This document shows positions 1 through 59,055 of a DNA stretch of 64,000 nt, piece after piece (position 1 is the stretch's first letter; each line of letters begins with the position of its first letter). The stretch lies in the IMG/VR virus record IMGVR_UViG_3300045988_182851, positions 39,491-103,490 of that record; one strand, given 5' to 3'. Made by a program: the position numbers and the translations under genes. The DNA is from a virus. The notes under the pieces are model-generated. The model was not told where the DNA came from, did not search any database, and saw only the letters and a list, made by a program, of their open reading frames with translations.

Positions 1-184
1 CTCATTGCATTTACCTCTTCTTTCTTAAATTTTAGTTTTATTCTGCATCATAATATACATCACAAAAGATGCAGGTGTCACAACAGCCATTGTCACATTC
101 TTCAGATGTAACCTCACTACAATCTTTATCATATTCATCGCAATATAGCATATAAATTCCTCCGTTTTCTGTTGAAATACTTGT

Positions 185-376
185 TTACTCATCAAGAACA
201 CCTATCATAGATGGTATCTGACACACTTTTAGTTCACCATCAAATAATTCTCTATGTTCTCTGGATTCAAAATATCTTTTTGCTTTATTATAAGCATCTC
301 TTTTTGAATCTGCTTTTACTTCAATCATTCTATCGTAGAATATTGCTATATAATTTCCATCTTTAATTCTTACCAT
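185..376 (-). CDS. hypothetical small protein (63 aa)
   Basis: ORF on the dominant coding strand, tiled with neighbours; no recognisable motif. Confidence 0.35.
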   Translation of the reverse strand: MVRIKDGNYIAIFYDRMIEVKADSKRDAYNKAKRYFESREHRELFDGELKVCQIPSMIGVLDE

Positions 377-415
377 AATACATCTCTCCTTATAACAAAT
401 CCTGAGTATTGTAAA

Positions 416-673
416 TCATTGTTTCATATCCAAATTTACTTTAATCATTTCCATTGCATTTTCTTTAATTTCATTACGAACCCTTTGCAATTCATCCCAT
501 GTTATATTTTTCATGCAACAATCACCATAATTACAGTACATGTATTCTGTGACTGTATCAATAATACTCATAATTACTTCATCACTTGCTACAGTTCCAA
601 TTTTTCTCATAGGCTCATTTAATGACATCTTATAAATTTTATTATTTTCTATATGATAAAGTCCATTTTCCAT
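416..673 (-). CDS. hypothetical protein (85 aa)
   Basis: minus-strand ORF immediately following the 684..866 ORF; no motif recognised. Confidence 0.4.
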   Translation of the reverse strand: MENGLYHIENNKIYKMSLNEPMRKIGTVASDEVIMSIIDTVTEYMYCNYGDCCMKNITWDELQRVRNEIKENAMEMIKVNLDMKQ

Positions 674-683
674 ATTTTTACTC

Positions 684-866
684 CTATACTATCTCAAAAT
701 CTTCATCAAATGATTTCATATCTGTTTTATATCCGCATTTATTTTCATCAATAAGTATCATATTATCACCATGATTCATACATCTGTATTCCTTTCCTTT
801 TAGGAAATTGCTAAAGCGGTTATCTTCCATTAATACTTTAACATCATGTTTTGCTTTTGCTTTCAT
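684..866 (-). CDS. hypothetical protein (60 aa)
   Basis: minus-strand ORF; AGGAG-like RBS upstream at about 870-880. Confidence 0.4.
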   Translation of the reverse strand: MKAKAKHDVKVLMEDNRFSNFLKGKEYRCMNHGDNMILIDENKCGYKTDMKSFDEDFEIV

Positions 867-897
867 ATGCTATTCTCCTTATTTTCTTCCTTTCTTA

Positions 898-1395
898 TCA
901 GCCTGCTGTTACTTTTATCTTGCATCCATCCTTAAGTTTATATGTATAAGTGCGGTTGTTCTCTAAATCAATACCTGTATACTCAAGCATATCTTCACAT
1001 GCTTTAAAGAATTGTATAGGAAGAAACATATACCCATGTTTAATAATCTCAATTTCCTTATCAAACAGACTTTCATAATGTTCGTCATCATTAACCAGAC
1101 TATCGTAAATGTTTCCATTATCAAAAATACTCTGGCTAAAAAATTTTCCTCCGGCTTCCTTACGCTCTCGTCTTTTAGCTTCAATATTCATTGTAATCTT
1201 TTCAATGACCTCTAAGGCTTCCATAAAATCATCAAGTTCGCCCTCATATAAACCTTCATCACTGATTTTTATACCTTTACTTATAAGGTATTCGCCCCAT
1301 TCGCCATACCATTCATTATTGCCAAAAATCTGTGTACCATTTACATTTGTTCTGTAACTCATATAGTTTTGTCCTCTCTTTACTTTTAATATCAT
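898..1395 (-). CDS. hypothetical protein (165 aa)
   Basis: long minus-strand ORF; the overlapping plus-strand ORFs are antisense artefacts. Confidence 0.5.
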   Translation of the reverse strand: MILKVKRGQNYMSYRTNVNGTQIFGNNEWYGEWGEYLISKGIKISDEGLYEGELDDFMEALEVIEKITMNIEAKRRERKEAGGKFFSQSIFDNGNIYDSLVNDDEHYESLFDKEIEIIKHGYMFLPIQFFKACEDMLEYTGIDLENNRTYTYKLKDGCKIKVTAG

Positions 1396-1740
1396 TTAGA
1401 TGTTCCATCTGAAAATTCAACAAGAATTTTGGTTGGATATTTTATATGTATAAAATTATTCTATTTCTAAAATTTCCTTTAATAAAGCCGCCTTTCTGAG
1501 TTTTTTTATTAATTCTTTTACATTATTATTTTTCTTTGTTCCCATTTAATGGCCTCCTTTAAAAAATTATTTAATTTATATATGACAGAAAAAAAATTAT
1601 TTTGTTATAATATCAAACAATATAGACAAAACTCTGAAGCTTTAAGTTACAAACTTATGGTTTGTTGGGATAAACCAATTTTTTGTGTCAAAAAAAAATA
1701 TTATATTTCCTATCATACATATGGTGGATTATATTTCTCG

Positions 1741-1857
1741 TTTTTATGAAAGGCCGGGCTTTAATATGAACATATAATCAAGCTATGCAGTTGAAGTTAT
1801 GTACTGAGTATAAAGTATAAGTAAATATCCTAGACCAAAGCTTCGGAGTGTATCCAA
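1741..1857 (+). mobile_element. MITE-like internal-deletion derivative of the IS200/IS605-family element at 33819..35375 (left end fused to right end)
   Basis: 1741-1800 nearly identical to the IS left end and tnpB start (tttttatgaaaggccgggctttaatatg.acat..aatcaagctatgcagttgaagtta); 1801-1857 matches the IS right end (atgctgagtacaagg.ataagt..cttcggagtgt); the upstream flank 1600-1740 is homologous to the flank of the full copy. Confidence 0.55.
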
Positions 1858-2010
1858 ATAAAAAATAAGGGATTAAATTAATCAATCCCTTATTTATCCC
1901 TTATTATTTAATTATCTAAAATTTACTTCGCAATTTTTTAAATTTTTGTTATTCTATGCGATTATATTTCCAATTACCAGTTACATCTGTTTTTCTAAAC
2001 CAATTACTTT

Positions 2011-2343
2011 CTAATTTCCTTTGATATCCTTCCTAATAATAAATTTCTGATTTCTATGCTTTCTTTCCAAATATTTGTTGAATGTTTCAACATCCTCTTC
2101 TGATAAAAGACCTTTTAATCCACTACGGCATTTTACAATATTATGAAGACAAAAATTATCTACATGACCATATTGGCATAAATCTCTTGCCATCATCATG
2201 TCACTATAAAGCTGCATGAAAATATCATTATATTTCTTCTCTCCTAATTGAGCGTACAAAGCATTACAAATAATTACTAAATCGTCCGCAGTTAATTCTA
2301 CCATTACTTCTCTTTTTTCCTTTGAGATAGTTTGAATATTCAT
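2011..2343 (-). CDS. hypothetical protein (110 aa)
   Basis: minus-strand ORF. Confidence 0.45.
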   Translation of the reverse strand: MNIQTISKEKREVMVELTADDLVIICNALYAQLGEKKYNDIFMQLYSDMMMARDLCQYGHVDNFCLHNIVKCRSGLKGLLSEEDVETFNKYLERKHRNQKFIIRKDIKGN

Positions 2344-2400
2344 ATTTATTACATTCCTTTCTAAAGTTATTTAACTCTATTACCATTTTTCTTGTTATCT

Positions 2401-2571
2401 TTATAAGTATTCCTCCATATATCCTCTTTGTTGCAATTCTGTTTTTAAACTATCTTGTTCTTTGTATAATAAATCACGCTTATACGCAGATATATTAAAA
2501 TCTTGCAGTTCGCCATCAATTTCATCTAATCTTTTAAAAAGGTCAGAACTATTAGCAGATTTTATTTTCAT
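2401..2571 (-). CDS. hypothetical small protein (56 aa, MKIKSANSSDLFKRLDEIDGELQDF...)
   Basis: translated by hand from the sequence; GGAGG RBS 7 nt before the ATG; preceded by a 50 nt 5'UTR duplicated before the next gene. Confidence 0.35.
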   Translation of the reverse strand: MKIKSANSSDLFKRLDEIDGELQDFNISAYKRDLLYKEQDSLKTELQQRGYMEEYL

Positions 2572-2629
2572 AATATTTCCTCCAATCTTCTAAAGAAACT
2601 CTTGTTTACTCATGCATATCAGTAAATCA

Positions 2630-3016
2630 TCATTTTGTTGTATTTAAAATTATTTCTGAAAAATATTTTCTCTGTTCTTCTAAAGAGCCATACTGTTCCC
2701 AATCAAAATAATTCGCATTTTTATCTGTTAAAATTTCTTGATTTGCAACTACTCTTAATCTGTGTTCTATTTCTTTAATAGTCGGAAATGATTCTGTATC
2801 ATTATTGGTATAAAACAAATACATGTAACCTCTTGATTTTTTTATACCGCTTGTATTACCAATAATAATTGCTCTAAATCCAGCATCATTTTCAACTGTA
2901 ATTTCTGACTCTCCAAGGTCATTATTCCATATGACATTGAAAAGTTTATATACTTCATTTTGCTTTAATTCCTTATATGCATTCTTTATCTTTCTTGCTA
3001 ATTCTAAATAGGTCAT
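2630..3016 (-). CDS. hypothetical protein (128 aa)
   Basis: minus-strand ORF with GGAGGAAAG RBS; shares a duplicated 5'UTR with the 2401..2571 ORF. Confidence 0.5.
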   Translation of the reverse strand: MTYLELARKIKNAYKELKQNEVYKLFNVIWNNDLGESEITVENDAGFRAIIIGNTSGIKKSRGYMYLFYTNNDTESFPTIKEIEHRLRVVANQEILTDKNANYFDWEQYGSLEEQRKYFSEIILNTTK

Positions 3017-3082
3017 ATCTTTCCTCCAATCTTCTAAAGAAACTCTTGTCTACTCATGCATACCAGTAAATCGCCAATTCAT

Positions 3083-3280
3083 TTACTTTAATTCAATTAA
3101 CTCTGCTTCTTCGACATATTTCTTTGCCGCATTATATCCATTTTTATTAAGTTCACCTTCAATGCTAAACCAAAGTGAATCTAAAAAATTGGGAATAGAT
3201 GCAAAATCTTTATTTGGATATTTTTCTCTATATCGCTTATATGCAATTTTATACAATTCATCTACTAAATCACGCTTCAT
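3083..3280 (-). CDS. hypothetical protein (65 aa)
   Basis: minus-strand ORF. Confidence 0.4.
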   Translation of the reverse strand: MKRDLVDELYKIAYKRYREKYPNKDFASIPNFLDSLWFSIEGELNKNGYNAAKKYVEEAELIELK

Positions 3281-3313
3281 TATATTTTCTCCTTTTACAT
3301 TAAGAAATTCGTT

Positions 3314-3643
3314 TCATTCAGTTTCGATTTCCAAAATCTGTCCAATAAGTTCCTCTAAGTTTTCACTATTCAGATATGGACGCTGTGGATTTCCATTCTT
3401 ATCATATAATGTCGCAGAATATCTATCATTTTCATATTTGTATATGACATCAAATGACACGTTATCTGTTTCAACGAATGCATGTGGTTCACCATATGTA
3501 TTTTTATTACCTTGTAAAAATTGCAACTCAATTTCTAAACAATGTTCTTCCACCTCGTTTTCATACAAGTCATTTTCAAGAATAGCTTCTATTTCTGTTA
3601 TTCGCAGCTCTTTCTCCTGATTTTCATTATATTCTAGTCGCAT
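3314..3643 (-). CDS. hypothetical acidic protein (109 aa)
   Basis: minus-strand ORF, highly acidic composition. Confidence 0.45.
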   Translation of the reverse strand: MRLEYNENQEKELRITEIEAILENDLYENEVEEHCLEIELQFLQGNKNTYGEPHAFVETDNVSFDVIYKYENDRYSATLYDKNGNPQRPYLNSENLEELIGQILEIETE

Positions 3644-3694
3644 ATAATCATCTCCATTCTTCTATAAATCATCGTTTCATGTTATTTTTTTTCT

Positions 3695-3895
3695 TTACTC
3701 AATTGTGATATATATTCCGTCTCTTTTATCCCATGCAAAAATTTGAATATTTAATAACTCTTCCGGTAATTCAGATATATTACCTTTAAATAAGTCTTTA
3801 TTTTTATTGGTAGAAACAATAATTAAATTTGCATGATTTTCTTTTCGATTATTTAATAATTCTTTTAGTGTGGGAGCTTTTTCCATAAATATCAA
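3695..3895 (-). CDS. hypothetical protein (66 aa)
   Basis: minus-strand ORF. Confidence 0.4.
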   Translation of the reverse strand: MIFMEKAPTLKELLNNRKENHANLIIVSTNKNKDLFKGNISELPEELLNIQIFAWDKRDGIYITIE

Positions 3896-4061
3896 TCCTC
3901 CATATTTTTATTATTATCCCGTTAAAACTCTTGATTACTTACCGTAATTTTCCATTCCTTGCATATTCTAAAGCTGCCTCTTTTCCATTATGTTTGATTA
4001 CTTCCTTATCTCCATCTGTGTTCCATTTAATATTTATTGCTTTTAATATATAAATCACTCC

Positions 4062-4535
4062 TTACGCAATCTTCGTTATTTCCATATAACAGCCATCCAT
4101 ACACTTATCATACTGTCTGATATCATATAGCCATTTGAAAGGTATTTTTACAGTTCTTTCATCCTTTAATTTTCCCATTATTTCGTCAATATCGAAATAA
4201 CCTTGCATAAATCCATAACCTGATAAATAATGTTGTCTGTCCAAATTACATAATCTGTCATGATATTTTATGGTATTTTTCTTTAGAAACTTAATATATC
4301 TGTCAGATAAGCCAAAATTTTCTTTTGGGTTGTCTTCACTCCATTCTGATGATAAAAATGAACAACCTTGGAACAATTTAAGTTGCCACATAACTTCACG
4401 CATATTATAAAGAGTCTTTGTGATTCCATTTATTGCGATCATATAATCATTCAATGTTCCTGGCTCCCAATTCTTTTTGCTGCATCTTTTACATTTATAT
4501 GTATCTGTATTAATTATCATTTTATATCGTGCCAT
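4062..4535 (-). CDS. hypothetical protein (157 aa) with N-terminal CxxC
   Basis: minus-strand ORF; CKRCSKK motif. Confidence 0.45.
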   Translation of the reverse strand: MARYKMIINTDTYKCKRCSKKNWEPGTLNDYMIAINGITKTLYNMREVMWQLKLFQGCSFLSSEWSEDNPKENFGLSDRYIKFLKKNTIKYHDRLCNLDRQHYLSGYGFMQGYFDIDEIMGKLKDERTVKIPFKWLYDIRQYDKCMDGCYMEITKIA

Positions 4536-4635
4536 ATTTTATTTCTCCTTTATATTATTTATTATGAAAAATATGACAGAAAATAAAAATATCTCACCCA
4601 ATTAATTTTGGATGAGATATTGTTGCTGCAATCTT

Positions 4636-4968
4636 TTACAAATATTTTTCTACAGACACAATCTGACTACAATTAAGTGAAATTTCTTTATCCTGGTATC
4701 CTCCTTCTCCATATATCTTTGCTACGGTTATAATACTCTCAACGATATCAACAGCCTTATCTACAGATATAACTACTTCTTTATTATTATCATTCGAGCA
4801 TTCGTCATCATCATATGTAGCTCCAGTCCACCAACTACAAGCAGACATCTCCTTAGAGGCTTCCTTAACTTCTCCTATTAAGGTATTTTTTACTGTATCT
4901 AATATACGTCTTTCATTTTCTGATTCTGCTTTTTCTATAAGTTCATTTATTGTATTAAGTGTCTTCAT
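4636..4968 (-). CDS. hypothetical protein (110 aa), paralog of the 24751..25020 ORF
   Basis: N-terminus MKTLNTINELIEKAESENERRILDTVKNTLIGEVKEASKE..W.T..TYDDD aligns with MKTLNIINDFIKTSESETEKNMLNIIKNTLISEISEASKE..W.T.STYDDD. Confidence 0.5.
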   Translation of the reverse strand: MKTLNTINELIEKAESENERRILDTVKNTLIGEVKEASKEMSACSWWTGATYDDDECSNDNNKEVVISVDKAVDIVESIITVAKIYGEGGYQDKEISLNCSQIVSVEKYL

Positions 4969-5137
4969 AACTATTATTTCTCCTTATATTGACAGCTATT
5001 GCAGCCTGTTTTTTTAATGATTTACAGTTCCCACAATTATTTCTATTTTTACAGAACCAACAATTGTCATTATCTATCATCCACCATTTAGGGGGGCTGT
5101 GGCCGCATTTTTTCTTTTAACTTTTCCCATATATTAT

Positions 5138-5875
5138 TTAATTATCTTTTATTATTTCTTTAAATCCATATTTAGACAGGTATTTAATAATCTCTTTCTG
5201 CTTCTGTTCAATTTTCCTAATCTGCTCAGGAGCTTTCTGTATATAAAGTTTCTGTTTTTCAACGTCTTCATCATAACTCTTTTTTAAACATTTATTTGCT
5301 TCTTCAGCTCTTTTATATTCATTATCAAATATCTTTTTTAAATACTGCTTAGACACAAATAAGCTGAAAAAGAAATCAGATATCCTGACACTGCATGTCT
5401 TATCTTTGTTAAATAAACAATGTTGTGCATTAGCCAGTCTCTTTTTAAATGTATAATTTTCGTATCTTTTAAAAATATCCTGTGTCTCATAAGGTTCATA
5501 TTTAGGTTCATCATTCATTATTTTATTATAATATTTGATGCAATCGTCAATAATCCTGTAAGTATGATTTATGAAATCTATGCACATAATATTTTGACTG
5601 TGAAATTCGTCAAATGAAGAAATCTTAACCGTTACATTATCAACATCTGAATAAGGTGTTAAAAATATATCATCATTATTAAATATCTCAATCTGCTTTA
5701 AATATTCCATCATGGCAGCATAAAATGTTTTACCATTAACAGTTATATTCTTAAATAAAAAATCATAATCGCTTACTCCGTATACGGATAAATCAGACAT
5801 AATTAATTCAGGGTTATTAATAAAATTTTCTAAAATATCCAGTTCATGTCTGGCATCCTTTAACTCAATACTCAT
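5138..5875 (-). CDS. hypothetical protein (245 aa)
   Basis: long minus-strand ORF; basic coiled-coil C-terminus. Confidence 0.5.
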   Translation of the reverse strand: MSIELKDARHELDILENFINNPELIMSDLSVYGVSDYDFLFKNITVNGKTFYAAMMEYLKQIEIFNNDDIFLTPYSDVDNVTVKISSFDEFHSQNIMCIDFINHTYRIIDDCIKYYNKIMNDEPKYEPYETQDIFKRYENYTFKKRLANAQHCLFNKDKTCSVRISDFFFSLFVSKQYLKKIFDNEYKRAEEANKCLKKSYDEDVEKQKLYIQKAPEQIRKIEQKQKEIIKYLSKYGFKEIIKDN

Positions 5876-5913
5876 AAATTTTTCTCCTCATAAAAAATCG
5901 AAATTTCTTGGTA

Positions 5914-6297
5914 CTATTTTTGATTAATATTTAAGTAATAAGTTTTTCCTTTAATCTTGATATATCTTCCTTTTTTATTAAAATAGCAAATCTTATTACA
6001 AGTCAGGTCATGATAATAATTGTCCTTATATTTGATTTCAATGGTTAAACCATTATCAAAAACTATCTCTTTATCGTCTGCCAAATTATATGGTACTTGT
6101 CGTATATACGGTTTAACACAAGCATTGCAGTATATAAGCGTTCTCAAATCGGTGCATATAATATCTTGTACACCCATACTTTTACCGCATTTTTCACAAA
6201 ATAGTTCAGCACATCTATATGACATGTATTCACTTTCTTTCCATTTTCGACCACTTTTATTTAACTTATTTTCTACTTTTTCCCATAATTGTCCCAA
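5914..6297 (-). CDS. Cys-rich putative zinc-binding protein (127 aa)
   Basis: several CxxC pairs (CEKCGK, CNAC). Confidence 0.45.
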   Translation of the reverse strand: MGQLWEKVENKLNKSGRKWKESEYMSYRCAELFCEKCGKSMGVQDIICTDLRTLIYCNACVKPYIRQVPYNLADDKEIVFDNGLTIEIKYKDNYYHDLTCNKICYFNKKGRYIKIKGKTYYLNINQK

Positions 6298-7978: not shown

Positions 7979-7992
7979 TATATGACAGAAAA
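7979..7992 (-). promoter_or_regulatory. conserved promoter-like motif (plus strand TATATGACAGAAAA; CTGTCATATA in gene orientation)
   Basis: one of more than 35 copies placed about 25-45 nt before RBSs of minus-strand genes; directly follows a terminator hairpin and T-run. Confidence 0.55.
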
Positions 7993-8026: not shown

Positions 8027-8073
8027 AATTCTTAAATTATTGTTAAGTATATATTTTACATTTCAGTTTCTAT

Positions 8074-8127
8074 GAACTACCCGCAATCGATTTTTGTTGA
8101 ATGGAGTTTTCTTGCTATTCTTCGATA
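8074..8127 (-). repeat. R1 structured repeat, copy 1 (GAACTACyCACAACCGAC..TTGTCGG.TGGAGTTTTCTTGCTATTCTTCGATAA)
   Basis: six copies share about 85-95% identity; here it sits between the R2 promoter (8132) and the terminator (8003-8024), suggesting a stand-alone small transcript. Confidence 0.6.
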
Positions 8128-8235
8128 ATTAATATGACAGAGCTAAAATATAATTTGTCTAAAGCATAAAAAAATCGGCTTATCCCACGAAGCTTTAAGC
8201 TTCGGGGTTTTGCCGATATTATTTGATATTATAAA
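8125..8235 (-). repeat. R2 terminator-promoter cassette, copy A (also at 33685..33810 inverted)
   Basis: about 110 nt nearly identical to the reverse complement of 33685-33810; GC-rich nested hairpin atcggc..cccacgaagcttTAAagcttcgggg..gccgat, T-run, then the CTGTCATATTAAT motif. Confidence 0.6.
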
Positions 8236-11592: not shown

Positions 11593-11774
11593 ATTAAATA
11601 AAATATTTGACACAAAATATTTGTTTTTAATATCTTTTTTTAATGGTTCTTGTATTTATTTTTGCCATTTAATTATATACAATGCCAACAATTTTTATAG
11701 TATTAAATGCTTTAAAAACGCATCAGAAAAGCCGGCTACAAAAGTAACCGGCTTAAAGATATTTATATTTTATT

Positions 11775-12627: not shown

Positions 12628-12847
12628 TTTTATTTCCTTTCTTATTTATATTTTTCATTTATTAATATGACAGAATAAAAAAATATTTTAATTTTTATTC
12701 AGAAATTTAAATTATTAAAATTAATATGACAGAATTTTAAATTAAATTTTTGACATAAAAAGCATATATCATTAAATGTGCTGTTTATAATTTCAAGTAA
12801 TATCAGTAATCCTGCCGAAGTTTTAAATTACTAATTTATGGTTTGAT

Positions 12848-13125
12848 AGGAAATCTATATGTAAAAAAAATAAGCATATGATCTGATATCCAAACAGAAG
12901 TATCTGAATGTCAGAGAAAAACATAAAATACCCTGTTAACATTAATAGCTATACATGTGTTTAGCAGTTTAATGTAACAGGGTATGGATTCAATCATCTT
13001 CTATACAAAAATCAGATTATATTTAGTTTTAATGTGGTATGTCAGGATATAAATTCTAAAGTGCAAATTTAATACTATATAGGATAGCTGATAAAATTAT
13101 GCTGAGTACAAGGTATAAGTGGATT
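12848..13125 (+). mobile_element. 3' remnant of the IS200/IS605-family element (last ~35 tnpB codons plus right-end / omega-RNA-like region)
   Basis: about 80% identity to 35083-35350 (tagttttaatgtggtatgtcag, ataaaattatgctgagtacaagg.ataagtg); no upstream tnpB. Confidence 0.55.
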
Positions 13126-13276
13126 TTCAAAGGTTTAGCTTCTTAATACATTCAATACAAATATCTAAAATTTCATTTTTAATAACTTTCCATTCTTCTT
13201 CAGTTTCAATGTCATATTCTTCAAAGCCATTAGTTTCAATATTTTCGATTGTTCCTTTCTTGCTATTAAACTGCTG

Positions 13277-13639
13277 TTACAAACTAATATTGATTTCTTT
13301 TTCTATTGTATTTTTTGGAACATACAATTTAATTTCTTCAATACCTAATAAAGCCTTTTTTATCACGGCATAAGCCTGTTCATTATTGTTTAATGTCTCA
13401 TAGATTGTTACTTTATCTCTATTCATTTTGAAATACTTCTTACCACCATCTTCTGTAATTTGATAAGCAGTTATATATTCCTGTGAATCAATACTTCCTG
13501 AACCTAATACAAATGAACCTTCATATTCCTTATCCGTACTGATACTGTAAAGCTGGACTTCTTCTGTGGTTTCTTTCATAACTGCTATGACTGTAACTCC
13601 GATTATAAAATATAATATTATAGTCCCAATTTTTTTCAT
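13277..13639 (-). CDS. membrane-anchored or secreted protein (120 aa)
   Basis: N-terminal hydrophobic segment MKKIGTIILYFIIGVTVIAV. Confidence 0.45.
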   Translation of the reverse strand: MKKIGTIILYFIIGVTVIAVMKETTEEVQLYSISTDKEYEGSFVLGSGSIDSQEYITAYQITEDGGKKYFKMNRDKVTIYETLNNNEQAYAVIKKALLGIEEIKLYVPKNTIEKEINISL

Positions 13640-20294: not shown

Positions 20295-21980
20295 TTAGCA
20301 TTTGCGTACTATTGAAGGGGCTGACATATCAGGGTTAATGAATTTCTTACATAAATGTTCAATTCCAGTTGTTGAATCAAGCCAATATAAATAATCTCCA
20401 TCAACGTCCACCAGATATTCATTAATAGAATCAAGAACATCGTTTACTTCAGAAACAGTACATATAAATCTGTATGAAGACTTATTTTTCTTTAAAGGTT
20501 TAACAGACTTAACAATAATCTGATATACAGTTTCGTCATCTGAAGATCTAAAATCATCTACTTGAATTTTTCCTGATAAACATAATTTAGCATCATTAAC
20601 AAGTAAGTCTCTAATATTCGCATAATCCTTAGAAAAACATACACCATTAATAGAACCTGTTTTATCTTCTACCTCAAAAGTTACCCATTCATATCCATTT
20701 CTATCCTTTCTTACAACAAGATTTTTAATTATACCAGATACATCGTTAACTTCTGTTGAAATATCAGAAATGGGATCTGTATAAATATTATACTCATCAA
20801 TTGGATGCCCTGTAATATAAACGCCTAACACTTCTTTTTCATCATTTAGAATCTGACCTAAATCATCTTCTACATAATCAATATCTATATTTTCAAGATC
20901 ATCTTCTAAGCTTTCTATAACTGTCTTAGCTGAATTGATACGTTTAATTATGGAATCTTTAGTTGGTATCTTTTTTGAAGTAACTTGAAAGGAAATATTT
21001 TCTTCTGAAATTCTTTCCTTAAACTCATCAAGATCAATATAATCTTCCACAAATTCAATAACTTTACTTGCGTTTTCAATAAACTTACTCTTCTCTCTGA
21101 TTTTCTTAATTGTATCCTGAATTTCTTTCATACAAATCATATCTAATGATATCATTGTTCTTGTATAACCAAGGCAATCGAAAGCACCTGCTTTAATTAA
21201 GGAACTTAATGCTTCTGCATTAATATTTGTTCGTTTGATAAAATCCTTAATATCAGAATATTCTCCATTAACATTTCTATCTTCAATAATTTTAGCTGCT
21301 TCTGCTCCAACATTCTTAATATTACTCAGACCATACAAAATGTTCCCATCTACAACATCACAATGTAAATTTGAAGCATTAATGTCCGGAGGCAATACCT
21401 TTACTCCAAAATCAAGGGCATCACTAATATCATCAGCGACTTCATCAATCTTATCAGTATAATTTATTACATTTGTAAGATAATAAGCCGGATAATAATA
21501 CTTAAGAAAAGCTGTCCAATATGATGTAACAGCATAAGCAGTAGCATGTGACTTATTAAACGCATACTTAGCAAAGTCAACCATCGCATCCCAGATTTTA
21601 TGAGCAATTTCTTCTGGTATTCCATTTGCAATACATCCTGGTACTAATGCTTCATTTTCTTTTTTAGTATCAGCATTGCCATATACAAAAGTGTGTCTTT
21701 CAGCATCAATTTCATCCTGATGTTTTTTTGACATAGCTCTACGGACTAAATCAGAACGCCCCCATGTATATCCTGCTAAATCACGAACAATCTGCATTAC
21801 CTGTTCCTGATAAACTATCTGTCCATAAGTAGTTGACAAAATTGGCTCTAATTGAGGACATAAATATTTAATCTTAGATGCATCCTTTTTACCTTCTATG
21901 AAATCAGGTATAAACTTTTCAGGACCAGGACGATATAAAGCATTCATTGCTATTAAATCTTCAATACCTGTTTTATTCAT
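20295..21980 (-). CDS. dnaE: DNA polymerase III alpha subunit, C-terminal part (fingers C-terminal half, HhH, OB fold), separately translated
   Basis: DLIAMNALYRPGP, YGQIVYQEQVMQI, FAKYAFNKSHATAYA, VLPPDINAS, HhH NIKNVGAEAAKII, OB GVYITGHP; own RBS AAAGGAGAAATTTAAAATG and own promoter motif at 22017. Confidence 0.85.
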   Translation of the reverse strand: MNKTGIEDLIAMNALYRPGPEKFIPDFIEGKKDASKIKYLCPQLEPILSTTYGQIVYQEQVMQIVRDLAGYTWGRSDLVRRAMSKKHQDEIDAERHTFVYGNADTKKENEALVPGCIANGIPEEIAHKIWDAMVDFAKYAFNKSHATAYAVTSYWTAFLKYYYPAYYLTNVINYTDKIDEVADDISDALDFGVKVLPPDINASNLHCDVVDGNILYGLSNIKNVGAEAAKIIEDRNVNGEYSDIKDFIKRTNINAEALSSLIKAGAFDCLGYTRTMISLDMICMKEIQDTIKKIREKSKFIENASKVIEFVEDYIDLDEFKERISEENISFQVTSKKIPTKDSIIKRINSAKTVIESLEDDLENIDIDYVEDDLGQILNDEKEVLGVYITGHPIDEYNIYTDPISDISTEVNDVSGIIKNLVVRKDRNGYEWVTFEVEDKTGSINGVCFSKDYANIRDLLVNDAKLCLSGKIQVDDFRSSDDETVYQIIVKSVKPLKKNKSSYRFICTVSEVNDVLDSINEYLVDVDGDYLYWLDSTTGIEHLCKKFINPDMSAPSIVRKC

Positions 21981-26568: not shown

Positions 26569-26592
26569 ATTCTCTTTCCTATCCTTGTAATT

Positions 26593-26648
26593 GAACTACC
26601 CACAACCGGCTATTGTCGGTTGTGGTTTTTTTGCTTAATTGCGATAAT
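26593..26648 (-). repeat. R1 structured repeat, copy 2 (divergent, 9 bp stem ccacaaccg/cggttgtgg)
   Basis: between the 26658 stop and the 26568 start. Confidence 0.55.
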
Positions 26649-26657
26649 ATCATTCTT

Positions 26658-28414: not shown

Positions 28415-29354
28415 CAAATATACCCCTACTTTCGTAGTACTTTAACACTTGTATAAGTGGGATTAGACTATATCTCAATATAATATTGTTAATATTATAT
28501 TTCAACGCACTTCCAACTGTAACCATTCTCAGTTGTACTCCTTAAAAAGGATAGTCGTTACACTTTAAAATAAATAATATTATATACGAACAATTTTTAA
28601 GTCATTCCATTTTAAATATTTATGCATTGAGGAATAACTTGCGTTATATTTTTCTTTAGCATATCGAGCTGCTGCTAATATGCTTTCAAATCTATCAATT
28701 AATATATCTCCTTTATATAATTTACAACACTTATAATTTCTTACAGGAGACATAGTTTTATAACTATCATATAAATTGTCTTTTCTAGTACACCATTCTA
28801 AATTATTCACCTTACAATTTTGTTTATTTTTGTCTTTATGATTAACTTCTGGTAGATTATAAGGATTAGGAATAAAATTCATCGCAACTAATCGATGCAA
28901 TAAATATTTTTTATTATCTAATCTTATCATCCTGTAATTCTTTTTACTATCTAAAAAAGGTTTAAGTTGTCGAATTTTCCCTTGTTTTATACTAAAAATC
29001 TTTCCATATGAAGTTATGTAATATTCGTGGTGATTTTTAATTTCTATTATTTTTTCACCTTTTTCAAGGAATGATGTAAAATTGATATAATCTATCATAA
29101 ATATACACCTCCTTATTTATATAATATTATTTATAATCTTAGCACGGTATCGCCTGCTATCCTTCAATATCTTTTATATAAAAATATTAGGACCGTAGGT
29201 TCTCTTACGAAGCTGCTTCGTCTATGGGTTAAGCTATATATCCTGTTGTGACACTTTATATAGCAGTCTTATTCAACTTCTACCGTTAGCACTTAATAAT
29301 AAAATATTAAGCACACCTCTGAGTTAGAGTCCACGCTGAACGCCCAATATATTT
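28415..29354 (-). other. group-I-like self-splicing intron (about 940 nt) interrupting dnaE between SMP and DIDSD, carrying an HNH homing endonuclease ORF
   Basis: exon 1 ends ..ATGCCT (U before the 5' splice site); the intron ends in G before GATATCGAT; joining restores the conserved ERVSMP|DIDSD; GC-richer structured segments at 29100-29350 and 28420-28580. Confidence 0.7.
28580..29098 (-). CDS. HNH homing endonuclease (HNH_3 / AP2-type, intron-encoded)
   Basis: HRLVAMNFIPNPYNLPEVNHKDKNKQNCKVNNLEWCTRKDN and an N-terminal YITSYGKIFS-type motif; RBS AAGGAGG before the ATG. Confidence 0.8.
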   Translation of the reverse strand: MIDYINFTSFLEKGEKIIEIKNHHEYYITSYGKIFSIKQGKIRQLKPFLDSKKNYRMIRLDNKKYLLHRLVAMNFIPNPYNLPEVNHKDKNKQNCKVNNLEWCTRKDNLYDSYKTMSPVRNYKCCKLYKGDILIDRFESILAAARYAKEKYNASYSSMHKYLKWNDLKIVRI

Positions 29355-31148
29355 AGGCATACTTACTCTTTCTGGATTTAAGAATCGTTCAAAAATCAGA
29401 TTATACTTAAATGGATCAATTCCGGTAATACCAAGTAAATATGTAACCAATGAACCGGCACCTGAACCTCTTCCAATGCCTATTCCAATTCCGGTATTAT
29501 AATTGTGAGCCTTAACATACTCTTTTGCACCTTCAATTGTTAAAGGTACTTCTGATAGTTTATCCATAGGTACTAATCCACAAATTCTTCCATATTCCAG
29601 GAAGTCCTTTACAATTAAATGATAATCGGCAAAGCCCATCTGAATAATAATATTAAGTTCGTATTCCATTCGTTTCTGATGTTCTTCATCCCATCCTTTT
29701 CCGTTAGGATATCTCCAATTAATTCCCTTAATTGCTTCAGATCTTAATAATTCGTTTGAGTCCTTGTTCTTATCAAATACTGGATAATGATTAGATTTTT
29801 CTGGAATATAAGCACATCTTTTTCCAATTACATTTAAGTTATTGAGTGCTTCTGCAACCTGATCATCTGTTAATATAGCTGATAAGGCCTGAGCAAGTTC
29901 GTAAGGTGTTTTTACATATAACTCTTTATCTGATTCCGACTCACTTATCTTAATAAATCTTAAAAACTTAGCTACATTACGCATATCAATACTTCTATCA
30001 GAATTATCTGCCATATGTGCATCATTAGCAGCAACTAATGGGATATTATGCTTCCTTGCTAACTGAGCTAACACAGGATATGTTCTGCTTTCCATTTCAA
30101 GCCCATGATTCTGAACTTCAATGTAATAATTACCTGCTCCAAAAATTTCCTGATAAAAAAGCATTGTCTTTTCTGCTTCAGACATTAATTCTATTGGGCT
30201 TTTCTTTAACGATTCATAATGCTGTATCTTATTTTCATGATTAATGTATTCCTCTACCTTAAGACTTATATCCTTTAACTCGGCTTTCTTAGCATTAACT
30301 AATTTTCTGACATTAGGAATTTTATCTTTAGCTTCCAGAATTTTATTATTTATCTCTTCATATTCGTTAATCAGTTTAATAAGCTCTGGATCATCATCAT
30401 TTAAACACTTCCTTGCATCTCTTAATTTTCTTGAAATCTGTGTCCTTTCTGATTTAAGTTCCTTGGAATCACGAATATTAATCAATTCATCTAAATCTGC
30501 CGATACCCTTTCAAATTCATCTTTAGCTGAAAGATATTCTTTATCATCAGGACTTATACAATCACGTATCACTAGCTCGTCTTTTTCAGTAGTATGCTGC
30601 TGTGCTTTTCTTTCTCTGTTAATCATTTTATCCAAAACATCATCTGATAATAATTGCAGAGCTGGTGCGCCCGAAACGCAAGCTGAAGTTGCTATTATAT
30701 CACCGTTAAAGTTATATTTCTTTAAATCTGATATTGTAATAACAGGCTTTCCCATTCTTTTTTCAGAAGCCTTAGAATTTAACTTATCAATAATATGCTT
30801 GCCTCTTTCTGAAGTGGCCAACATAATCATATGGCCAATCTGCTCATTTATCTTAAATGGCGGCACTTCAATATAAGCCTCTACGCCATAAATGATATTA
30901 AATGGATGTTCTTCAGTACTTATTTTCTTAGCGTAATCAATACATGTTTGCATTGCTGAAAATGATGCATGGTCCGTAACAGCAAATTTAGTATATCCTG
31001 CATTAAATGCAGCATCTAAATAACTTTTAGGTTCATCTACGGCATCAAACAAAGAGCCTCCTGGATGGTTATGTTCACACACTGTAACTCCTGATTCAAT
31101 AACCTTTTTTGTTAATTCTCCAATTTTTACATGTTCAAACATTGACAT
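29355..31148 (-). CDS. dnaE: DNA polymerase III alpha, exon 1 (PHP domain and palm) of the N-terminal gene
   Basis: [20 protein letters not shown]; [40 protein letters not shown]; RBS AAAGGAGGAAATTTAATG; about 170 aa coiled-coil insertion inside PHP. Confidence 0.85.
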
Positions 31149-33593: not shown

Positions 33594-33684
33594 GATTAAG
33601 TCCTCCTTTTGTTTTTTATTTAATACAAATTACATATGACAGAAAAATAAAAATAAACAAAAAATTGGACTTGTTTTTTCGCAA

Positions 33685-33810
33685 ATCCTATTTTTATAAT
33701 ATCAAACAATATTGGCAAACCCCGAAGCTTCAGGCTTCGTGGGATAAGCCGATTTTTTATACTTTAAACAAAATTATATTTTAGCTCTGTCATATTAATT
33801 ATAGGTTAAA
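33685..33810 (+). repeat. R2 terminator-promoter cassette, copy B (inverted relative to copy A), with promoter CTGTCATAT on the plus strand at 33787-33795
   Basis: reverse complement nearly identical to 8125-8235; faces the IS left end and tnpB. Confidence 0.6.
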
Positions 33811-33818
33811 TCCTAAAT

Positions 33819-35375
33819 TTTTATGAAAGGCCGGGCTTTAATATGGACATAAAATCAAGCTATGCAGTTGAAGTTAAGAATATTAACAAATTGTTCAATC
33901 CAACAATTAAAATTTATAATCAGGCTGTAACTTTTTGCATCCAGGTGTTTGAAAATGAGTGGTCTGTATTAAAAGATATTAATGACTCAAAAATACAATG
34001 TGGTGTTGCAAGGAACTTAATTCATTCTACAAAGTCAAATAAAGCTAAGTATTCAGAGTTTGATAAATTGTTCCACAAAATGCCCAGCTATTGTACTACA
34101 GCAGTCATCAATGCATCTCTCGGTGTACTTAATTCTTATCATTCAAACTTACAGAACTGGTATGATGAAGGCTGCAAAGGTAATCGTCCTACATTGCAGA
34201 TTCATACCAATAAATATCCAGTCTTTTATAAAGACAACATGTATAAGTGGGCTGATACAAAAAATGCCATACTGCTCAAGCTTTTTATAAACAATGACTG
34301 GCAGTGGGTAAAGCTGCGCTTAAAACATACTGATATACAAAGTATTAAAAAGCACAGCATCAATGCAAAAATTTCTGTACCTATATTAGAAAAGAAGCAT
34401 AAGAAATGGTTTCTGCGATTTGCGTTTGAAAACAAAGCAATTTTAAATAAGACACCATTATCTAAGCAGAAAATCTTAGCAGTTGATCTGGGTATTAACA
34501 CAGATGCTACCTGTTCAGTTATGGATCATTATGGAACTGTCCTTGCAAGATGTTTTATCAATCATGCAAGTGAAAAAGACTATATTAAACATAATCTAAA
34601 CAGGATAAAAAAGTATCAGGCTGCAGGGCAAAAAGATGTGGTCCGGAAGTTATGGAGTTTAGTTAAGAATTACAATAATGAGCTTGCGTCAAAAACTGCT
34701 AATGCCATAGTGGATTATGCCAGACAATTAAATGTCGATGTTATAGTATTTGAACATCTGGATATGAAAGGCAGGAAGAGAGGATCCAAGCGCCAGTTAT
34801 TACACATGTGGAATAAGAATACTATACAGAGAATTGTCACTCATAAGGCTCATTTATCAGGTATCCGCATCAGTCATATATGTGCAAGGAACACAAGTAA
34901 GTTAGCATATGACGGTTCAGGATATGTACTAAGAGGAAAAGACGCAGGATTGCTTACATATGAACTTTGCAGATTCCAGACTGGCAAAATATATAACTGT
35001 GATTTATCTGCATCTTATAATATAGGAGCCAGATATTTTATTCGTGAAATCGAGAAATTATATACAGGGAAATCCATATGTAAAAAAATAAACATATGGT
35101 CTGATATCCAGGCGAAAGTACCTGAATGTCAAAGAAGAACACAAAATACCCTTTCAACACTAAGAGCTATACATCAATGTTTAGCAGTTTAGTGTAAAAA
35201 GGGTATGGATTCAGTCGCCTTCAATATAAAAATTGATTGTATTTAGTTTTAATGTGGTATGTCAGAGCGTAAGTTCTGATGCGCTAAGTTAAAACTGTAT
35301 AAGATGGTGGATAAAATTATGCTGAGTACAAGGCATAAGTGAATCTCCGAATCTAAAGATTCGGAGTGTGTTCAA
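33819..35375 (+). mobile_element. IS200/IS605-family element encoding TnpB only (IS1341-like), about 1.55 kb
   Basis: left end tttatgaaaggccgggc then the tnpB ATG; right-end hairpin ctccgaatc-taaa-gattcggag at 35345-35366; both ends recur in the mini copy (1741-1857) and the remnant (12848-13125). Confidence 0.7.
33843..35192 (+). CDS. tnpB: TnpB (IS200/IS605 OrfB, RuvC-like RNA-guided nuclease family)
   Basis: RuvC-I AVDLGINTDATCSV, RuvC-II VIVFEHLDM, C-terminal Cys cluster HICARNTSK...CRFQTG..YNCDLSASYNIGARYF; the only convincing plus-strand gene. Confidence 0.85.
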   Translation: MDIKSSYAVEVKNINKLFNPTIKIYNQAVTFCIQVFENEWSVLKDINDSKIQCGVARNLIHSTKSNKAKYSEFDKLFHKMPSYCTTAVINASLGVLNSYHSNLQNWYDEGCKGNRPTLQIHTNKYPVFYKDNMYKWADTKNAILLKLFINNDWQWVKLRLKHTDIQSIKKHSINAKISVPILEKKHKKWFLRFAFENKAILNKTPLSKQKILAVDLGINTDATCSVMDHYGTVLARCFINHASEKDYIKHNLNRIKKYQAAGQKDVVRKLWSLVKNYNNELASKTANAIVDYARQLNVDVIVFEHLDMKGRKRGSKRQLLHMWNKNTIQRIVTHKAHLSGIRISHICARNTSKLAYDGSGYVLRGKDAGLLTYELCRFQTGKIYNCDLSASYNIGARYFIREIEKLYTGKSICKKINIWSDIQAKVPECQRRTQNTLSTLRAIHQCLAV

Positions 35376-35381
35376 TAATTG

Positions 35382-37372: not shown

Positions 37373-37388
37373 ATTAAAAATCTCCTAA

Positions 37389-37445
37389 TGAACTACTCAC
37401 AACCGACTTTTGTCGGATGGAGTTTTCTTGCAATTCTTCGGTAAC
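37389..37445 (-). repeat. R1 structured repeat, copy 3
   Basis: ends 16 nt before the kinase RBS; lies in the 3'UTR of the 49 aa ORF. Confidence 0.6.
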
Positions 37446-37594
37446 TAATGCCATAAGCAATTATATAATTCATCAATGCGATTCTGGCATCTGTCAGCTT
37501 CTAATTCATTACCGGATTCCGAATACTGGTCCCTTTTAATTTCCCAATTTTGAATTTCTTTTTTTATTCTTGTATATTTACCATTTTCTTTCAT
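37445..37594 (-). CDS. hypothetical small protein (49 aa, MKENGKYTRIKKEIQNWEIK...)
   Basis: translated by hand; RBS AAAAGGAG; promoter motif at 37627-37644. Confidence 0.3.
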   Translation of the reverse strand: MKENGKYTRIKKEIQNWEIKRDQYSESGNELEADRCQNRIDELYNCLWH

Positions 37595-44876: not shown

Positions 44877-44911
44877 AAATTTTGTTCCTTTCTTTTAGTA
44901 AAAATAAGCAT

Positions 44912-44966
44912 GAACTACTCACAACCGACATTAATCGGGTGGAGCTTTCTTGCTTGATTGCGATAA
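44912..44966 (-). repeat. R1 structured repeat, copy 4 (in the 5'UTR of the SPFH gene)
   Basis: about 40 nt downstream of the promoter motif at 45007; ends about 35 nt before the ATG. Confidence 0.6.
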
Positions 44967-45038
44967 ACATCTTTTAAATTATTTTGTTTACGCCAATCAT
45001 TAGTAATATGACAGATATTTAATTTATTTTTTTTACAT

Positions 45039-46950: not shown

Positions 46951-46987
46951 ATCTCCTGCTAAAATATTAATTTCTAAATTATTTTAT

Positions 46988-47043
46988 GAATTATTCACAA
47001 CCGACTATTGTCGAATGGAGTTTTCTTGCTATTCTTCGATAAT
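46988..47043 (-). repeat. R1 structured repeat, copy 5 (stand-alone unit: promoter-like TGTCATATAT at 47082-47098, then R1, then the terminator at 46923-46950)
   Basis: no ORF between promoter and terminator. Confidence 0.6.
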
Positions 47044-47101
47044 ATAGAAATATAATTGATTTTTCCTTTTTAATTGAATGTTTTATATATGACATAAAAT
47101 A

Positions 47102-58905: not shown

Positions 58906-58938
58906 AAATTATTACAATCCTTTCCATTATTAAATTTA

Positions 58939-58994
58939 TTAACTACTCGCAACTGACTATTGTCGGATGGAGTTTTCTTGCTATTCTTCGATAA
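58939..58994 (-). repeat. R1 structured repeat, copy 6 (5'UTR of the UvrD helicase)
   Basis: about 20 nt downstream of the promoter motif at 59005-59020. Confidence 0.6.
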
Positions 58995-59055
58995 AATCTT
59001 TTATTTAAAATATGACAGATTTATAGTGGATTTTTCTTACATAAAAAAGAGAAGC

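Follow-up and report, generated by a model that had tools for sequence, protein, structure and literature searches.

Insertion of IS200/IS605-family elements is biased to the lagging-strand template, and IS608, which serves together with ISDra2 as a model of the family, inserts 3′ of TTAC and ends in TCAA. For homing endonuclease genes and introns, a cycle is known in which the element spreads by cleaving empty sites, becomes fixed, loses its nuclease, and decays in place. Palindrome-associated transposable elements (PATEs), which are MITE-like, gene-less derivatives of IS200/IS605 elements, were described in Haloquadratum (PMC3119063) and have been noted in Geobacillus stearothermophilus (PMC10055086). 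TnpBs have also been reported in viral genomes (PMC10691335).

In this study, we analyzed a 64-kb stretch of DNA (hereafter, the window) from a widespread human-gut jumbo phage, the contigs of which are 220-810 kb in length. A unit at 1609-1857 of the window (hereafter, the relic) is most likely what is left in this phage of a tnpB-only IS200/IS605-family element that lost its interior and is now dead. Like PATEs, the relic joins the left and right ends of an IS200/IS605 element in about 250 bp of non-coding DNA, and it lies 3′ of the target motif of its family with no target duplication. PATEs, however, have intact end palindromes, are multicopy, and often carry an omega-RNA, whereas the relic has degenerate hairpins and a mutated right cleavage motif, occupies one locus, and keeps about a fifth of the omega-RNA scaffold.

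The initial annotation had described a MITE-like derivative of about 120 bp, in which 1741-1800 reproduced the IS left end with the first 14 or so codons of tnpB, 1801-1857 reproduced the right end, and the whole interior of tnpB was deleted. Pairwise alignment bore out this composition. The segment 1741-1799/1800 was identical at 56/58 positions to 33819-33880, which comprises the left end and the first 11 (not about 14) codons of tnpB (z = 32.7), and 1800/1801-1857 was identical at 42/54 positions to the right end at 35290-35375, of which 35319-35375 was the aligned part (z = 16-17; 17.0 for 1801-1857). Each z value refers to 1000 dinucleotide-preserving shuffles, none of which approached the real score in either the left-end or the right-end comparison. 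Because the scores at both ends were far above these controls, the similarity is not an artefact of AT-richness, a point on which the annotation had itself asked for an alignment.

The size, in contrast, had been underestimated. The left-hand homology begins at about 1604-1609 and runs to 1799, with 33691-33876 as its counterpart and a 14-nt insertion on the side of the relic; between 1609-1799 and 33698-33876, 115/149 aligned positions were identical (z = 36; blastn E = 7e-25). With its limits set by analogy with the boundaries of the full-length copy, the relic spans 249 bp and reads TTTAT/AATATC ... TATCCAA/AT (slashes mark junctions here and below). The first 179 nt of the full-length element, represented here by 191 nt, are joined directly to its last 57 nt, represented by 58 nt. 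The 1,442 bp missing from the interior held tnpB codons 12-449 together with the greater part of the omega-RNA scaffold. The deletion junction at 1799/1800 reads GAAGTTA/TG(TA)CTGAG with a 3-nt TTA microhomology. Since TTA is present at both breakpoints of the full-length element, the deletion would have been microhomology-mediated.

The full-length copy in the window (hereafter, the full copy) is a tnpB-only IS200/IS605-type element of 1,678 bp at 33698-35375 on the plus strand, as indicated by an empty site, a homology break, TnpB homology, and covariation. It carries a two-tier left-end hairpin (33711-33753), a phage-type promoter TCTGTCATAT (33787-33796), tnpB encoding 449 amino acids (33843-35192), and a right-end hairpin (35345-35366), and it terminates in TTCAA. 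The empty site of the sister phage contig L041 reads ...cctatttttat/taattattaaaattt, and the occupied site of the window reads ...cctatttttat/AATATCAAAC (beginning AATATC) ... GTGTGTTCAA/taattgttaaaattt. The comparison sets the limits of the element at 33698-35375, 3′ of TTTAT and ending in TCAA; in the arrangement TTTAT/element/TAATT there are neither a target-site duplication nor terminal inverted repeats, as is typical of IS200/IS605 insertion. TTTAT directly precedes 8/8 phage left ends examined. Furthermore, copies 83% identical to the full copy occur in unrelated contexts (L001-L004), where the homology begins at 33691 and ends at 35377.

Similar imperfect palindromes lie near both ends of the full copy, as in other IS200/IS605 elements. 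The left-end hairpin, ATTGGC..CCCCGAAGC-loop-GCTTCGTGGG..GCCGAT, is followed by a T-run and had a DNA folding energy of -11.0 kcal/mol, and the right-end hairpin, CTCCGAATC-TAAA-GATTCGGAG, had one of -11.6 kcal/mol. In relatives with 63% amino acid identity, both hairpins change together (CCCCTGAGC and GCTCAGGGG in L006; CCCCTATGC and GCATAGGGG in L008), while the tail AGTGTTCAA is unchanged in L006 and L008. The encoded TnpB matched OrfB_IS605 and the Cas12f1-like TNB domain of Pfam weakly, below the Pfam cut-offs. It has more than 5,800 homologues, PF27142 (Aq_aa04) being carried by those among the matches listed, and it matched the solved TnpB 9nzp_A (E = 1.4e-5) with D/E/D at the conserved RuvC motifs as read from the alignment. 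A conserved fold with 90 predicted pairs, 31 of which show compensatory changes, covers the last approximately 125 nt of tnpB together with the right end; a long-range helix pairs GAACACA, within the 3′ end of tnpB, with TGTGTTC at the right-end tip. This fold would correspond to the omega-RNA region expected at this position. In addition, a Y1_Tnp gene (E = 8e-33) lies directly upstream in the closest genomic relatives of tnpB, L073 and L074, which come from Lachnospiraceae MAGs. The empty site, the end hairpins, the TnpB homology, the Y1_Tnp-paired relatives, and the omega-RNA covariation argue that the full copy is a genuine tnpB-only IS200/IS605-family element.

In its position 3′ of TTTAT without duplication, its paired hairpins, its TCAA end, the overlap of its predicted omega-RNA region with the 3′ end of tnpB, and the pairing of its relatives with Y1 TnpA, the full copy resembles known tnpB-only IS200/IS605 elements (IS1341-type). 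It differs from them in two respects. Its TnpB belongs to the PF27142 (Aq_aa04) branch and falls below the OrfB_IS605/TNB cut-offs, and the phage lineage has an extra left-end segment of about 80 nt, bearing the TCTGTCATAT promoter, which is absent from the bacterial L006 and L073. Because these two bacterial elements are without the promoter-bearing segment, it seems that the IS lineage resident in the phages gained its tnpB promoter, which is of the phage type. As a separate observation, the promoter-like motif TTTTTCTGTCATAT has about 35 gene-strand copies throughout the window (for example, at 1580-1587, 4571-4578, 7980-7987, and 33634-33641 on the minus strand), a subclass of which has an upstream TTTATGTAA box; the sole intergenic plus-strand copy, at 33788-33795, belongs to the left end of the tnpB element.

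The alignments and boundaries also bear on the reading that the resemblance is due to chance between AT-rich sequences or to segmental duplication of a phage regulatory region. The window is indeed AT-rich, and the left-end promoter and terminator-like hairpin could be native modules of the phage. Against this stand the z values of 16-36 over dinucleotide shuffles, the stop of homology exactly at the transposon boundaries set by the empty site, and the fact that the same ends bound copies in unrelated contexts. Moreover, flank homology among the relic, the full copy, and a second derivative described below was not significant beyond a shared phage promoter motif. Since the flanks of the relic are unrelated to those of the other copies, the relic or its full-length ancestor would have come by transposition and not by segmental duplication. 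On these grounds the reading is refuted, and we accord it next to no probability.

We then compared the features retained in the remnant with those of the full copy. The relic is degraded at every functional feature scored. Its left-end-derived part (1609-1799, plus strand) abuts a TTTAT target motif (1604-1608), which lies in the flank outside the element and equals the left half of the L041 empty site. This part begins with the tip AATATC within TATAAT, followed by a rearranged hairpin region containing the 14-nt insertion (about 1625-1684), in which DNA folding showed a different, weaker fold in place of the canonical hairpin. The left-end covariance model gave 37 bits for the relic versus 84-95 bits for intact copies. 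The phage-type promoter at 1710-1718 (CTATCATAC) is mutated; it reads TATCATAC, where the approximately 35 promoter-context copies on the gene strand read TGTCATAT or TGTCATTA. The remnant of tnpB starts with an ATG at 1766 and stops at codon 4 with TAA (1775-1777). In the right-end-derived part (1800-1857, plus strand), the hairpin is degenerate (5′ arm ATCCTAGAC, 1827-1835; 3′ arm GCTTCGGAG, 1840-1848), with 4/9 positions of the 5′ arm mutated and a DNA folding energy of -1.2 kcal/mol, versus -11.6 for the full copy and -8.7 for the L001 copy; furthermore, the relic ends in CCAA where the full copy has TCAA.

The initial annotation had also suggested that the unit may act as an omega-RNA-like or structured RNA gene. 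This was not supported, since only the last 58 nt of the scaffold of about 270 nt (alignment columns of about 262-320 out of 320) remain and GAACACA, the 5′ strand of the long-range closing helix, is deleted. Thus a complete foldable scaffold is missing, and the relic would be unable either to encode TnpB or to form the omega-RNA scaffold. That the relic is an orphan gene for an omega-RNA or guide RNA, on which the resident TnpB draws in trans, is in our view scarcely credible: it keeps the right-end tip, the part of an omega-RNA that borders on the guide, and PATEs often encode omega-RNAs (PMC10055086), but only the two last hairpin positions survive from the scaffold of about 90 pairs, one of the two is broken, and the sole upstream phage-type promoter is the mutated one. 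Rfam at gathering thresholds gave no hit in the whole window, and at permissive E-values the relic, the full element, and one copy of a motif named D2 (see below) gave nothing or single chance-level matches far below the thresholds.

As to mobility, the layout of a MITE- or PATE-type derivative ascribed to this unit stood, in that both transposon ends are kept in a small unit with no transposase or nuclease gene; activity as a MITE, in contrast, was not supported. Mobilization in trans by TnpA depends on intact end hairpins and cleavage motifs, and the relic lacks the right-end hairpin and the cleavage motif that the Y1 TnpA transposase would need. We collected 28 contigs in all, 19 through a look-up of the two flanking genes, which favours close relatives, and nine through sequence patterns within the relic. 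Among the former, 15/19 had the relic between the same flanks at 99-100% identity, and the other four end short of or before it. The patterns for the left-end variant and the deletion junction yielded nine more contigs (L057 from IMG/VR and eight from metagenomes), all at the same locus and 93-99% identical, one of which ends inside the relic. In total, 24 other contigs hold the whole relic, all of them between the same two flanks, and four shorter contigs also fit the locus. Neither several loci nor an insertion polymorphism, as expected of a MITE or PATE, was seen in the 64-kb window and the contigs checked, and further mini copies, which the initial annotation had proposed to look for, were not present in the window (the genome exceeds 220 kb). 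In IMG/VR, searches with TnpB and with a 23-nt left-end pattern returned nothing. The pattern of the left-end variant of the relic returned only L057 (the same relic at the same locus) and chance matches, and the canonical left-end pattern chance matches only. Megablast of window positions 1-6000 against the phage collection gave no match.

These data weigh on the possibility that the relic is an active MITE or PATE, still mobilized in trans by a TnpA whose gene lies elsewhere in the phage genome or in that of the host. Such a unit would keep both ends, be small and non-coding, and lie 3′ of TTTAT like the full copies, as the relic does, and PATE-type elements are documented for IS200/IS605 (PMC10055086, PMC3119063). 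We nevertheless consider this very unlikely, because the relic has lost its right-end hairpin, carries CCAA in place of TCAA, has a rearranged form of the canonical left-end hairpin, and shows an excess of variable sites (see below), and because all 24 other contigs with the whole unit, including those from the junction search, share the same flanks. Moreover, tblastn detected no Y1 TnpA encoded in the 64-kb window (best E = 0.34). A sister phage, L063, does have an autonomous IS605 with a Y1 TnpA, which would favour mobility; this TnpA was rejected as a likely mobilizer of the relic, since the end hairpins of its element (CTCGG..CCGAG) are unrelated. That IS605, at 9309-11093 of L063, corresponds to about position 11703 of the window, where the site is empty, and encodes a Y1 TnpA of 137 aa together with an unrelated TnpB of 368 aa. 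Another C-terminal piece of a TnpB lies at 13051-13518 of the same contig.

Subsequently, sequence variation was examined among 10 variants. Variable sites made up 12.0% of the relic, 5.1% of the adjacent coding sequence, and 5.6-6.5% of the non-coding flanks, an excess that was significant by Fisher's test (p = 0.011 versus non-coding flanks; p = 0.0045 versus coding). One variant differs across 1714-1721, probably through a short indel. In L057, the relic was 94.0% identical, versus 97.5% for the neighbouring coding sequence; the former ATG is now ATA, and the right-end stem has a further mismatch. Because variable sites are about twice as frequent as in the flanks, the relic is not under purifying selection. 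As judged from these comparisons, it appears to be a structurally disabled, unconstrained unit at a single fixed locus.

The same data were considered with respect to exaptation as a regulatory element, in which the tip TATAAT and the flanking ATGACA form a sigma-70 promoter that drives a short left-end-derived RNA or interferes with the minus-strand promoter at 1578-1596. A sigma-70-like site, ATGACA-18-TATAAT, is found across the junction of flank and left end (1582-1611, plus strand), the left-end tip having come to lie next to the phage promoter, which is read here as its reverse complement. The site matches 11/12 positions with TG upstream, and about 70 nt downstream there is a weak hairpin, GGTTT..AAACC, with T6 behind it. 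In addition, the relic is retained in every lineage sampled, and the RNA fold of 1609-1900, a stretch that includes the flanking terminator, is stabler than shuffles (z = -3.4). On the other hand, the spacer changes from 18 to 19 nt in L057, variable sites occur throughout the putative RNA, with the variant at 1714-1721 among them, no Rfam family matches, and the full copy is without a comparable -35 element. Exaptation thus seems decidedly unlikely.

The relic sits in a gap between two minus-strand transcription signals, both outside the element. In the left flank, a phage promoter motif TTTTTTTTCTGTCATATAT (1578-1596, minus strand) serves the downstream 29-aa and 165-aa genes; it is one of about 35 minus-strand copies, most of which lie 25-35 nt upstream of a ribosome-binding site. 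In the right flank is the intrinsic-terminator hairpin of the upstream 110-aa gene, with 14 pairs and then a T-run. The initial annotation had placed a strong hairpin at 1886-1910 behind the unit; it is this minus-strand terminator, and its actual position is 1863-1895. An insertion in the gap between these two signals disrupts nothing, which fits its being tolerated. A 66-aa ORF (1549-1749) that the gene caller had annotated across the promoter and the left end was rejected as spurious; it has no family hits and overlaps the opposite-strand promoter.

The adjoining 110-aa gene (2011-2343, minus strand) is shorter than its 131-aa homologues, and homology to relatives ends at 2065; in L067 (2984-3848), extra small gene cassettes are surrounded by repeats of the boundary segment 1972-2071. 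The breakpoint and the repeats suggest a recombination hotspot for gene-cassette exchange near 2065. The index of the assembly collection lists the 110-aa protein in about 1,000 blocks. Distant homologues of its gene were also examined for an empty site, and none was informative because synteny breaks at 2065. Neither an empty site (TTTAT/AATAAAAAATAAGGG) nor a full-length ancestor was found at the locus of the relic among the contigs sampled, and for that reason deletion in situ is a step that we infer rather than observe.

Almost all genes of the window, which include replication genes, are on the minus strand. The relic lies opposite to them, on the plus strand, as do the full copy and the second derivative, an orientation that would fit the lagging-strand bias of the family. 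A tRNA scan of the window found none. A DNA polymerase (phrog_405; PHP and DNA_pol3_alpha in the L041 annotation) is apparently split into N- and C-terminal genes about 7 kb apart (29307-31148 and 20295-21980, minus strand). The relatives of TnpB and one flanking-gene homologue would point to Lachnospiraceae as hosts.

The 64-kb window contains four left-end copies and three right-end copies in total. A second deletion derivative of 367 bp (12789-13155, plus strand; 80% identity over 312 nt, E = 4e-74) joins about 60 nt of the left end to the last approximately 125 nt of tnpB and the whole right end (equivalent to 35068-35375). Its junction is at a microhomology, GGAAATC, which the left end matches imperfectly, and it keeps the whole omega-RNA region, with the terminal right-end hairpin destroyed. 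The same derivative is also present in the sister contig L063. The relic and this derivative share the 14-nt left-end insertion and a GCTTC 3′ arm in the right end, and the insertion is seen neither in the resident full copy nor in a solitary left end or the copies of L001-L005. Since their deletions differ, the two are best read as independent decay products of a second sub-lineage. A full-length parent of this sub-lineage was not found with the left-end pattern, the right-end pattern in representative genomes, or the sub-lineage right-end pattern in IMG/VR.

The solitary left end (8125-8230, minus strand) is 92% identical to the left end of the full copy and scored 95 bits with the covariance model. 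Its hairpin and promoter are intact, and it directly follows the stop codon of a gene; transcription from this promoter would pass through a D2 copy and reach a terminator without meeting an ORF. D2 is a conserved 57-63-nt motif, TTATCGAAGAATAGCAAGAAAACTCCAYCCGACAAWAGTCGGTTGTGAGTAGTTCAT, with its sense on the minus strand, and also occurs in L001, L002, L005, L036, and others. In the window, it is found at 8069-8131, 26588-26650, 37385-37447, 44907-44969, 46983-47045, and 58935-58997, all on the minus strand. At least four copies are downstream of a CTGTCATAT-type promoter, and four are just upstream of a ribosome-binding site and ATG of genes including those for a helicase and guanylate kinase. 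D2 forms a hairpin with slight covariation and has no Rfam match; it is a candidate 5′-leader regulatory RNA or protein-binding site of the phage. Extra left-end copies were observed in L001 (4842-5197 and 6174-6238) and L002 (6437-6792), a related phage with an 82%-identical tnpB, as was an N-terminal piece of tnpB (63-69 aa) that belongs to a more divergent lineage. These remnants suggest that decayed TnpB elements recur in this phage group.

Taken together, these findings are consistent with the following course of events. A full-length element from a sub-lineage other than that of the resident full copy would have inserted 3′ of TTTAT in the gap that separates the terminator of the minus-strand gene from the next operon's promoter. 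A deletion between TTA microhomologies, of which the junction is seen in the present sequence, would have removed most of tnpB and the scaffold. The remainder would then have decayed, with loss of TnpB coding, the omega-RNA scaffold, the right-end hairpin, and the cleavage motif, and would now be inherited vertically as neutral DNA at a single locus. We found no evidence for movement of, or a functional RNA from, the relic. We would class it as an ordinary deletion relic, inert and MITE/PATE-like in its architecture, and thus as a degenerate remnant of a known kind of element.

The full element is polymorphic among otherwise near-identical phages; the site is cleanly empty in L041 (4119-4228), and in L044 tnpB is truncated to 328 aa. 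The predicted guide of the full copy, TAATTGTTAAAATTTA, matches the L041 empty site TTTAT+TAATTATTAAAATTTA with one mismatch, and the predicted TnpB target, which includes the L041-type empty site, is TTTAT+TAATT(G/A)TTAAAATTTA. The polymorphism and the guide match suggest that a TnpB-bearing phage could cleave phages without the element, and TnpB homing between co-infecting phages is conceivable from these sequences. The relic may be likened to the degenerate phase of a homing element, as a decayed element that still fills its site; the parallel is conceptual only. One may extend it by supposing that TnpB homes in cycles among co-infecting jumbo phages, that the relic represents the stage of decay in such a cycle, and that the scar is retained as passive immunity, not as pure junk. 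The remnant, by filling the junction of TTTAT and target, would block cutting by the related TnpB-omega-RNA of a competitor phage. We regard this proposal as unlikely.

The neutral remnant that we favour has little import alone, and it should be annotated as a transposon remnant and not as a gene, MITE, or RNA. Together with the second derivative, the solitary left end, and the polymorphic full copy, it is a marker of IS200/IS605 TnpB elements long hosted in one lineage of gut jumbo phages, in which these elements insert, spread, and decay by microhomology deletions. A phage-resident TnpB lineage with a phage-type promoter may provide a tractable natural system for TnpB homing between competing phages.
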